A stretch of 64,000 bases of DNA from Octopus vulgaris (lineage: Eukaryota). The translations under genes and the position numbers were made by a program. The notes below the pieces were generated by a model. That model saw only the letters and a program-made list of their open reading frames with translations. It was not told where the DNA came from and made no database searches. The stretch lies in NCBI GenBank assembly GCA_951406725.2, contig OX597827.1, positions 63,116,001 through 63,180,000 of the forward strand, given 5' to 3'. Positions 5,586 through 63,934 of this stretch are shown here, in pieces. Position 1 is the stretch's first letter; each line of letters opens with the position of its first letter.

Positions 5586-5649
5586 CTATAATAATAATAA
5601 TAATAATGATAATAATAATGATAATAATAATAATAATAACAATAATAAC

Positions 5650-25981: not shown

Positions 25982-26056
25982 GATCATACTGAAGAGCTAC
26001 GGACAGTTACGTTAGCAAATTTGCGTAAGTGTCACTAGCGAAATTAATTTATGATT
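25982..26056 (+). ncRNA. Type I hammerhead ribozyme, canonical core, long stem II
   Basis: atcata-CTGAAGA-gcta(cggacagttacgt...tgcgtaagtgtcac)tagc-GAAA-ttaa-TT-tatgat; palindromic minimal stem III. Confidence 0.8.
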
Positions 26057-27390: not shown

Positions 27391-27752
27391 AGTATCAATA
27401 CCGGCAGATGACAACGTGTCTCTAAAAGAAATGGAGAAACTCTCAAAATACAAAGACCTGGAAATAGAGGTAACTAGAATGTGGAACCTGAAAACAGAAA
27501 CAATTCCTATCATAGTAGGTGCATTAGGCATGATAAAAAAATATTCAGACAAATACATAACAAAAACACCAGGACTTACAAACACATATAACATACAGAA
27601 AATTGCACTACTAGGCACTGCACACATCCTACGCAGAACACTTCCCATACAATAACCATCAGAGCATCACAACAAATCACAGCACATACCCAAGGCACAC
27701 AGAGCTGCGCTCGGTAGTGAAGTGAAAGCACGCTATAAAAATAAAAATACTG
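27391..27752 (+). mobile_element. 5'-truncated RLE-type LINE family 2 (R4/Dong-like) in (AAT)n
   Basis: VSIPADDNVSLKEMEKLSKYKDLEIEVTRMWNLKTETIPIIVGALG...LLGTAHILRR, stop at 27655; AAT on both sides. Confidence 0.88.

Positions 27753-31700
<3,948 letters not shown>

Positions 31701-59915: not shown

Positions 59916-59940
<25 letters not shown>
59640..59940. repeat. CT-rich minisatellite, three ~90-100 bp units
   Basis: cttttcgc...cattattctctctttccctctattctctct occurs three times. Confidence 0.8.
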
Positions 59941-59950
<10 letters not shown>

Positions 59951-59954
<4 letters not shown>

Positions 59955-60603
59955 ATCATATCAAAAGGGAAATGGAATTTAATTAAATTTAAAATATTCA
60001 ATCAAAATTTACATTTCCAGTGGTCTAATATTAAATGGTAAATGTTTTTCATTTCCAAATTTTGTTCCTGTCGAATCTTATCCGTTATTTTTGTGGTTCT
60101 ATGTGTTGAATTTCACCCTAAGTGTGGATTCCTTATGTGTATAAATATACACTATCGTATGACTAATATATAGTCTTCTTGACTATTTTTTTACACGTTA
60201 GACCACTGGAAATGTAAGTTTTGATCGAATATTTTAAATTTAATTAAATTCCATTTCCCTTTTGATATGATTAAACATTATAACATTTTGGATAATTTTC
60301 GGTTAAAGTTGGCGGTTTATTATAGCTACCGATAGGACTGCGATTGCGCAGAAAAATTTGAAAAGTTACTTCGTATAAACAGTAGACAGATAGCAGTCCT
60401 TGTCTTCTGTCTTATGTTTTAACCCAAGGTTGGCCCTCGCCGATGAAGATCAGACCTTGTGAGTTACCCTGACTTGCTAAAGAAGATCAGAAACCAATTT
60501 TGGTCCGGGGTATTAAATGGTAAATGTTTTTCATTTCCAAATTTTGTTCCTGTCGAATCTTATCCGTTATTTTTGTGGTTCTATGTGTTGAATTTCACCC
60601 TAA
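59951..60603 (+). mobile_element. Retrozyme-like / mini-Penelope element: 5' inversion + 482 nt monomer + partial second monomer, in (TA)n
   Basis: 60029-60121 equals 60511-60603; 59953-60028 is an inverted copy of 60198-60273; hammerhead at the monomer junction. Confidence 0.8.
60435..60510 (+). ncRNA. Type I hammerhead ribozyme (C at core position 4)
   Basis: cctcg-CCGATGA-a-gatc...gatc-a-GAAA-ccaa tt ttgg-TC-cgggg; GUC triplet at 60503-60505. Confidence 0.7.
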
Positions 60604-60743
60604 ATATATATATATATATTTGAAACATAGATGAAACATTCCTGTCACAACTTGGGTCCTTGAAGACTGCTTAAATGCAAGAAAGTATACTAGTCCCTTA
60701 ATATTTAATATTCAATAATTCCTCTATACACAATCATACAAAC

Positions 60744-60779
<36 letters not shown>

Positions 60780-61664: not shown

Positions 61665-61880
61665 AGCAGCGAACTGGCAGAATCGTTACCACGCCGGGCA
61701 AAACGCATAACGGCTTTTCGGTCATCTTTACAAACTGAGTTCAAATTCTGCTGGGGTCAACTTTATCTTTCATCCTTTTGGGGGGTCGATAAAATAAGTA
61801 CCAATTGAGCACTGGAGTTGATGCAATCAACTTGCCCTCTCCTCCGAAATCGTTGGTCTTGTGCCAAAATTTGTAACCAT
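61665..61880 (+). mobile_element. Degenerate SINE family B
   Basis: gcgaactggcagaatcgtta...gagttcaaattc...ggggtcgataaaataagtacc. Confidence 0.8.
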
Positions 61881-61963
61881 TATTATCCTCATTTTGAATA
61901 TTTCCTGACTCTGAAACAAGTAATGTAAGATACATGAATGAAACGGGAAAAGTGAGAGCGAGA

Positions 61964-63239: not shown

Positions 63240-63562
63240 AAGGCGCGTGGTTTAGTGGTTAGGAGCATTCAGCTCATGATCGTATGGTCGTGAGTTCAAT
63301 TCCCGGCGGCGCATTGTGTCCTTGAGCAAGACACTTTATTTCACGTTGCTCCAATCCGCTCAGCTTGAAAAAATGAGTAGTACCTGTCTTTCAAAGGGCC
63401 AACCTTGTCACACTCTGTGTCATGCTGAATCTCCCCGAGAACTACGTTAAGGGTACACGTGTTTGTGGAGTGCTCAGCCACTTACACGTTAATTTCACGA
63501 GCAAGCTGTTCCGTTGATCGTATCAGCTGGGACCCTCGTCGTCGCAACCGACGGAGTGCTCC
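63240..63562 (+). mobile_element. tRNA-derived CORE-type SINE family D
   Basis: tggtttagtggttag A-box, gagttcaattccc B-box, tgtgtccttgagcaagacacttt CORE-like motif. Confidence 0.85.
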
Positions 63563-63934
63563 TTATAAATATCTAGAAAAGAACATGTCCCAGTTAGCGA
63601 TAATCTGCAATCTGCAAGGGGTGTATGCAACCCCTGTTAGTTTCAACTAATGAAAATCCAAAATGGCCAAAGTTCATTAAAATGTCGCACAAATAGTCGT
63701 GACAATCATCAGACGGGTACTATGAACATCATTCAACAGGACAGGAAGGAAATGTAAAACAAATGTTGTGCTTTATTGCATCTGTCTCCTTTAACAACAC
63801 ATTCAGTACCGCACGAGCCAAACTGGGAGACCCCGAACTGGTCGCTCGGTCCACTAGAAATAAGACCCAAATTTCCTCCAAGAAAATCACACCCTAGAGT
63901 GTGGTCTCAAGTTACCTGCAAATATTTTATATTT

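Follow-up and report, generated by a model that had tools for sequence, protein, structure and literature searches.

An ORF-less hammerhead unit in the Octopus vulgaris genome with the insertion anatomy of a non-autonomous Penelope-like element

The element in the window

The window analysed here, a stretch of 64,000 nucleotides from Octopus vulgaris contig OX597827.1, holds one copy of a 482-nt unit with a single hammerhead motif and a low GC content of 34%. Unit positions are counted from 60506, the first base after the predicted cut. The copy is composed as follows.

59937..59954, no strand: left (TA)n tract, the target microsatellite, recognised from the sequence and because family members end at TA repeats
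59953..60028, minus strand: inverted arm, unit 175 to about 250-259; its outer end lies in the far (distal) start zone of the family
60029..60603, plus strand: forward arm of 1.19 units, i.e. unit 6-482 followed by 1-98, from repeat and unit alignment
60029..60121, plus strand: direct repeat copy 1, whose left edge is the 5' truncation/inversion junction
60149..60172, plus strand: near (proximal) zone, unit 126-149, TA-rich, with the commonest arm ends of the family; putative start of reverse transcription
60271..60282, plus strand: far (distal) zone, unit 248-259, TA-rich, with further family arm ends; putative second start
60435..60510, plus strand: type I hammerhead motif with a C4 core and a predicted cut after 60505, from motif, fold and covariation
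60511..60603, plus strand: direct repeat copy 2, the 3' tail past the ribozyme, which stops at unit 98
60604..60619, no strand: right (TA)n tract, common to this copy and to another, separate repeat with a hammerhead, beginning at about 60622

The direct repeats (60029-60121 and 60511-60603) comprise 93 nt each, are 100% identical and are offset by 482 nt, and the forward arm amounts to 575/482 units. The inverted arms (59948-60028 and 60198-60278) are 95% complementary over 81 nt, with a core of 76 nt at 97.4% identity; at the 2 sites where the left arm differs from 60198-60273, it carries the alleles which are commoner in the family (17/19 arms). The forward arm ends atypically at unit 98, short of the family's usual near zone. 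The first-pass annotation of this DNA had described identical repeats of 93 bp at this spacing, starting 6 nt after a predicted GUC cut and amounting to about 1.2 turns of a unit, together with a 5' inverted copy of an internal segment, (TA)n on both sides and missing coding capacity. This anatomy could be confirmed in full: the second repeat begins at 60511, the sixth base after the cut at 60505, and Met-started frames of the doubled unit reach at most 43 aa. No linked ORF with RT and GIY-YIG domains, as expected for an autonomous Penelope-like element (PLE), was found.

Other repeats occur in the same window. The right TA tract also holds a second, unrelated hammerhead-like repeat (60622-60748). 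In its relatives, stem I is GGGAC/GUCCC, stem III is palindromic, and the core has 8 nt, one base more than usual. The genome contains 1168 candidates for this repeat; at 12 loci, a PLE ORF was absent from the adjacent 1.5 kb. The final 20 nt of the repeat are similar to the tail of the coding PLE loci L067 and L072. Hammerhead-like motifs with canonical CUGANGA cores are present at 25989-26049 (plus strand) and at 1616-1567 (minus strand), the latter resembling a motif in L072. An (ATA)n-type array of 4 kb, which shows higher-order variation, occupies 27735-31700, and very high-copy short interspersed repeats, heavily covered in RNA-like and DNA runs, lie at 61666-61929 and 63250-63645.

A dispersed family of non-coding units

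The surveyed genome comprises 2.8 Gb in 227 contigs. Exact family motifs gave 128, 667, 299 and 426 genome matches, compared to 1, 0, 0 and 0 for the controls; the first value refers to the stem III/cut motif with its reversed control and the second to the tail 16-mer, i.e. these matches are not due to chance. The family consists of several hundred or more dispersed, ORF-less units of 478-509 nt that are joined head-to-tail. From score-ranked searches (with the full stretch, the best 40 of 1383 candidates were scored) and first-listed motif matches, we collected 236 loci and parsed them into 253 insertions, 186 of them distinct; 30 further loci looked alike and were left out of the counts, and a small number of loci (L084/L094, L199/L200) have the appearance of segmental duplicates. 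For parsing, we used three natural reference units (482, 509 and 478 nt), the most distant of which are approximately 65-68% alike.

Head-to-tail joining without an ORF was observed in all three subfamilies, and the non-coding unit with one hammerhead per unit corresponds to that of non-LTR retrozymes. Insertions span 0.1-1.8 units. Nine arms cross two cut sites, some of them with two whole ribozymes (L009, L247, L268), and the longest arm reaches 886 nt; in all these arms a single unit lies between the cuts. An array of two or more full units was not present among the 186 insertions. The further copies that the first-pass annotation suggested looking for exist in large number; of the tandem multimers it also named, none with two or more full units was encountered in this set.

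The hammerhead motif

The motif has the three stems of a type I hammerhead around a CUGANGA/GAAA/NUH core, and these stems pair and covary. In the window copy, stem I (60435-39/60506-10) adjoins the core CCGAUGA (60440-46), which is followed by the extended stem II (60448-51/60485-88) with A-A at 10.1-11.1, by GAAA at 60490-93 and by stem III (60493-96/60501-04), with the GUC ending at 60505. A scan of the window against Rfam at the gathering score found nothing. The hammerhead fold of this copy has -14.2 kcal/mol (constrained -16.4) versus -19.6 for the minimum-energy fold, i.e. it lies 3-5 kcal/mol above it.

Covariation was analysed in 44 of 125 extracted copies, hand-picked across subfamilies. 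The predicted ribozyme pairing is kept in 96.7% of the cells, compared to 21-48% for slid controls, and 7 of 19 ribozyme pairs show two-sided changes; shuffle counts on these 44 rows are not probabilities, because the sequences are related. The core pair 3-8 is C-G in 31, U-G in 7 and U-A in 6 rows, and U3-A8, a compensatory change from C3-G8, is present in two different subfamilies; natural U3/A8 covariation is known from hammerheads (PMC3088659). The C at core position 4, which the first-pass annotation had pointed out in the window copy, is indeed there, though not specific to this copy: it occurs in 28 of the 125 cores overall and in 17/31 cores of the query's own subfamily, so that it was inherited and does not represent private damage. 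Most older copies retain the canonical core (52/71 o-type cores). The U4C exchange has been reported as a natural variant with reduced activity in vitro, and a viroid hammerhead carrying it is described as weak in vitro with activity sufficient in vivo (PMC3088659). Altogether, the hammerhead cores of the family form a natural series of variants, which would escape a search restricted to CUGANGA. Self-cleavage at the predicted site is putative, with the core covariation and the excess of 5' ends near the cut (see below) as indirect signs.

Stem III varies as well. It is a perfect palindrome in the older subfamilies (columns 83-94 of alignment A1) and gains 1-2 U in the query's subfamily, which results in a 4-bp hairpin. 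This change may reflect a shift from dimeric to monomeric folding.

Insertion boundaries

The reproducible boundaries of the family are 3' ends at TA-rich internal sites and not the ribozyme cut. Almost all outer 3' ends (270/286) fall into two zones, 139 into the near and 131 into the far zone, which were set after the data had been seen and whose BLAST ends are fuzzy within TA repeats. The near-zone peaks are at unit 132, 137 and 149, those of the far zone at 254, 255 and 259; the zones lie approximately 125-150 and 245-260 nt past the cut, about 105 nt apart, and both are TA-rich. TA-type repeats adjoin 206/286 outer ends compared to 350/4720 (7.4%) in the background.

The 5' ends represent scattered truncations with a modest excess at the cut. 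In 140 arms sampled by their tail motifs, the stop rate per nt was 0.8% downstream of the cut, 1.4% at -6 to +12 and 0.3% just upstream. The 14 stops at -6 to +12 compare with 8.4 (p 0.05) or 2.8 (p 2e-6) predicted by the rates on either side. Around the second cut, 4 stops were found versus 1.2 expected (p 0.03, window copy left out). Hence, the 5' end of the window copy at +6 may reflect a cut RNA. Nevertheless, 52/64 arms that reach the cut region, in a sample drawn regardless of the ribozyme, run through it, and the length of the direct repeats differs between copies from 55 to 377 nt. The boundary at the cut is a minority effect. The first-pass annotation had proposed that the ribozyme delimits the repeat; at the family level this does not hold, since the left repeat edge is a truncation/inversion junction and the 5' ends are scattered, and what is left of the proposed link is the modest excess of stops near the cut. 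Two apparent 5'-end clusters were discarded: the one at unit 449-451 was a reference artefact and mostly disappeared with the third reference, and the one at unit 73 results in part from a 21-nt indel.

Two-armed insertions

A head-to-head inverted arm is present in 100 of the 186 insertions. The two outer ends pair near with far in 81 cases, near with near in 6 and far with far in 2, and 11 insertions have an unclassifiable end. Near-far pairing in 81/89 classifiable cases compares with 50% expected (binomial p about 1e-16), a large effect, albeit with zones defined post hoc and a few probable segmental duplicates. Of the 73 clean cases, 36 have a near arm that is contained in the far arm, and in 32 neither arm contains the other; in the remaining 5, which include the window copy, the far arm is contained in the near arm's upstream unit. 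Coinciding 5' ends of the two sister arms were found in 10/73 cases (7.1 by chance, p 0.16).

At 19 loci, sister arms diverge at 191/3048 sites (6.3%) and the repeats within one arm at 192/3120 (6.2%). Equal divergence is compatible with one template or one source, and two different RNA molecules per insertion are not supported by this test of 19 loci. The sister arm was the best match in only 15/55 cases. Taken together, partial tandem, inverted 5' arm, one-sided tail and microsatellite target, i.e. the insertion anatomy of PLEs, are all present, and the Penelope signature of an inverted pLTR plus a one-sided tail points to dual target-primed reverse transcription. The family is non-autonomous, Penelope-type and retrozyme-like.

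Coding Penelope-like elements in the genome

Intact RT+GIY-YIG elements are abundant in the genome, many of them with 781-aa frames. These elements terminate in (TA)n as well and have alternative ends with an extended tail. The search for an autonomous parent covered part of 6136 candidates. Real likeness to the unit was absent from 42 GIY-YIG loci (30 with 1.5-kb flanks, 12 longer), and alignment of the unit with five coding 3' regions gave a best local-alignment z of 2.0 in 15 comparisons. A tblastn search of four PLE frames on the family loci detected adjacent remnants. Several loci were rejected as coding parents: L247/L273, L085/L274, L139/L275 and L166/L278 are separate insertions beyond the (TA)n or wrongly oriented, and L002, L140, L226, L242, L168, L266, L302 and L315 were rejected on position and strand only. 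The widely spaced motif pairs at L233 and L234, considered as frames around an ORF, turned out to be independent short insertions.

Some observations concern the coding elements themselves. One very abundant PLE family (L061-L066) was probably active recently; its RT+GIY-YIG frames of 781 aa are intact, and a further frame of up to 479 aa lies upstream. Minimal hammerhead-like motifs occur in coding RT+GIY-YIG elements at L067 (4806-4840), L247 (about 4140-4100, minus strand) and L061 (about 5590-5630). Their cores are variant, with C4 in L067/L069, U3-A8 in L247/L273 and possibly U3-A8 in L061, and escape a strict CUGANGA search.

RNA evidence

Among the sequencing runs that contain the exact stretch, none is recorded as RNA. 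In three small runs that we guess to be RNA (X1, X4 and X5, from two studies of organism A, a relative), one contig of 421-476 nt each was obtained at a depth of 86-114; these contigs consist almost wholly of unit sequence, cross the cut and have the C4 core. Reads of X1 and X5 cover the unit at flat depth and leave its single-copy flanks empty. Two genome-size DNA runs of other organisms have covered flanks and an approximately 15-fold skew to the tail, and X13, guessed to be RNA from organism B, gave mixed short contigs. These read patterns are hints of a specifically transcribed unit in the relative, and the contigs would fit a circle or an uncut linear RNA alike.

Proposed mechanism and alternative explanations

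We consider it likely, with a probability of about three in four, that the ORF-less hammerhead unit is mobilised in trans by a Penelope-like RT/GIY-YIG protein, with two-site priming into (TA)n; mobilisation by a PLE is suggested by the insertion anatomy. The protein is predicted to nick both strands of the (TA)n target, and reverse transcription would start at two internal TA-rich RNA sites, the near site priming one DNA strand and the far site the other. These two priming events, one per target strand, would use one RNA or RNAs of one source, and the two cDNAs would be joined at their truncated ends. The template could be circular, or it could be a linear read-through RNA of more than one unit. 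In most templates the ribozyme junction would be uncut or religated, hence the arms run through and the direct repeats are of variable length, and a minority of templates would begin at the cut. In the window copy, the far-primed arm would have stopped after approximately 80 nt, and the other arm would have run for 1.19 units and stopped 5 nt before the next cut. However, several points do not fit smoothly. The near-far spacing of approximately 105 nt is far longer than the 30-40-bp tails of PLEs, there is no coding element resembling the unit among those compared, and the putative hammerhead is not the minimum-energy fold in the window copy. Moreover, the initiation site described in PMC11167929 is not homologous to the target, whereas the ends observed here lie on TA-rich sequence.

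Three other readings have to be weighed against this mechanism or as a refinement of it. Self-priming, as proposed for PLE inverted repeats (PMC3846280), could have produced the inverted arm by fold-back or template switching on the first cDNA, without a second RNA priming. Such a route is geometrically possible in 41/73 two-arm cases, the window copy included, which also counts against the preferred mechanism, and the junctions often have a few bases of overlap. But in 32/73 cases fold-back copying could not have produced either arm from the other, so fold-back is not the general route; palindromic junctions are not in excess, and fold-back by itself leaves the other-zone end of the second arm in 81/89 cases unexplained. 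We regard it as unlikely. It is more improbable still that the copies represent nothing but truncated pseudo-LTR tandems derived from a coding Penelope and have no independent life, the alternative that the first-pass annotation had raised against its own reading. The insertion anatomy is the same as in coding PLEs, and the search for a parent was partial, with only the top candidates scored. Nevertheless, this reading is already largely refuted: ORF-less head-to-tail joining in all three subfamilies, with one unit between two cuts, shows the copies to be more than the end of a coding element, no coding parent was found, and the RT/endonuclease matches near family loci lie beyond the (TA)n or are unsuitably oriented or placed.

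The classical retrozyme cycle, in which the hammerhead cuts twice and ligation gives a circle of 480-510 nt as template, would refine the trans-mobilisation mechanism, and we rate its chances at slightly below even. Since the two start zones are located downstream of the cut, arms copied from a cut linear monomer could not exceed 259 nt, yet most arms cross the junction and some, as mentioned above, extend over two cut sites. There is no clear asymmetry between unit and tail (the rarer allele is located upstream in 154 instances and in the tail in 169), the circular unit folds better than shuffled sequences (z -3.3, -2.3 and -1.5), and the probable RNA runs of the relative are dominated by one contig across the cut. 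On the other hand, none of these contigs closes into a circle, that they are RNA is a guess, and they come from another organism. The lack of full-unit arrays also speaks against a circle, although the truncation rate alone could explain it. Furthermore, the stops enriched at the first and weakly at the second cut indicate that some templates were linear and cut, and shared repeat differences run 54 times in the same and 38 times in the opposite direction, partly in noisy columns. A more far-reaching version is doubtful on present evidence, namely that a long-lived, ribozyme-delimited circular RNA of approximately 480-510 nt serves as template for a dimeric Penelope-type enzyme that uses two fixed sites of this RNA, about 105 nt apart, one for priming each strand of the (TA)n target. 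The hammerhead would then have been tuned down via C4, U3-G8 and U3-A8 cores, as the majority of templates need to remain uncut or religated. If true, this version would provide a direct link between the circles of animal retrozymes and the integration chemistry of Penelope, and it would account for the structure of inverted repeat plus one-sided tail.

Comparison with known systems

The family works like a non-autonomous Penelope element and has the unit of a non-LTR retrozyme, not yet its arrays or its circular RNA. Tandem type I hammerhead retrozymes are expressed as circles, and PLEs have been named as their likely mobilisers (PMC7229834). Recently, metazoan retrozymes were argued to be non-autonomous PLE derivatives, in a sample of vertebrates, three insects and one coral; there, the proposed mobilisation rests on co-occurrence and terminal-repeat similarity (bioRxiv 10.64898/2026.07.22.740005). 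The octopus family shares with metazoan non-LTR retrozymes the non-coding, low-GC head-to-tail unit with one type I hammerhead, the co-occurrence with PLEs and the proposed mobilisation by them. However, theirs are dimers to long arrays and the octopus copies are insertions of 0.1-1.8 units with inverted arms, the octopus unit is larger than the 220-390-bp monomers of coral, mussel and axolotl, and no homologous PLE terminal repeat was found for it among the coding elements compared. Moreover, non-LTR retrozymes are expressed as monomeric linear and circular RNA; for the octopus family a circular RNA is plausible and self-cleavage putative.

In the openly accessible literature we found no published description of the octopus family or of the one-of-each pairing rule. 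Taken alone, the single window copy is unremarkable; of value is the insertion rule at the family level, where hundreds of insertions of a tiny non-coding substrate record the Penelope signature. Near-far pairing suggests how a Penelope enzyme likely copies RNA onto both DNA strands, and the near-strict rule of one near and one far end offers a short RNA and a precise prediction for in vitro testing.

Endonuclease-bearing PLEs are described with an inverted arm and a tail of 30-40 bp, often at one end only (PMC8557442, PMC3846280), and the origin of their tandem and inverted insertions is stated as unresolved (PMC8557442). According to these accounts, they resemble the octopus family in 5' truncation, head-to-head inverted arm, one-end extension, (TA)n bias and a hammerhead near the 3' end. 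Unlike them, the octopus unit has no ORF and its extension comprises approximately 105 nt, and for the octopus family the one-of-each pairing could be quantified (81/89). The non-autonomous Chlamys elements, e.g. MRC1, are likewise non-coding PLE parasites with pLTRs and head-to-tail insertions, but as portrayed in PMC8557442 their 3' end is generally similar to that of an autonomous family, and hammerheads are mostly missing from their clade. Related in mechanism is Poseidon of Anolis, the protein of which nicks and extends both strands in vitro, with two internal RNA sites and use of uncut RNA (PMC11167929). In both systems, that of the octopus as proposed here, two internal start sites lie downstream of the hammerhead, both strands are used, uncut RNA appears as the main template and the targets are AT-rich. 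The Poseidon sites are adjacent, AC-rich, not homologous to the target and without a strand difference, whereas those of the octopus family are TA-rich, approximately 105 nt apart and used one per arm.
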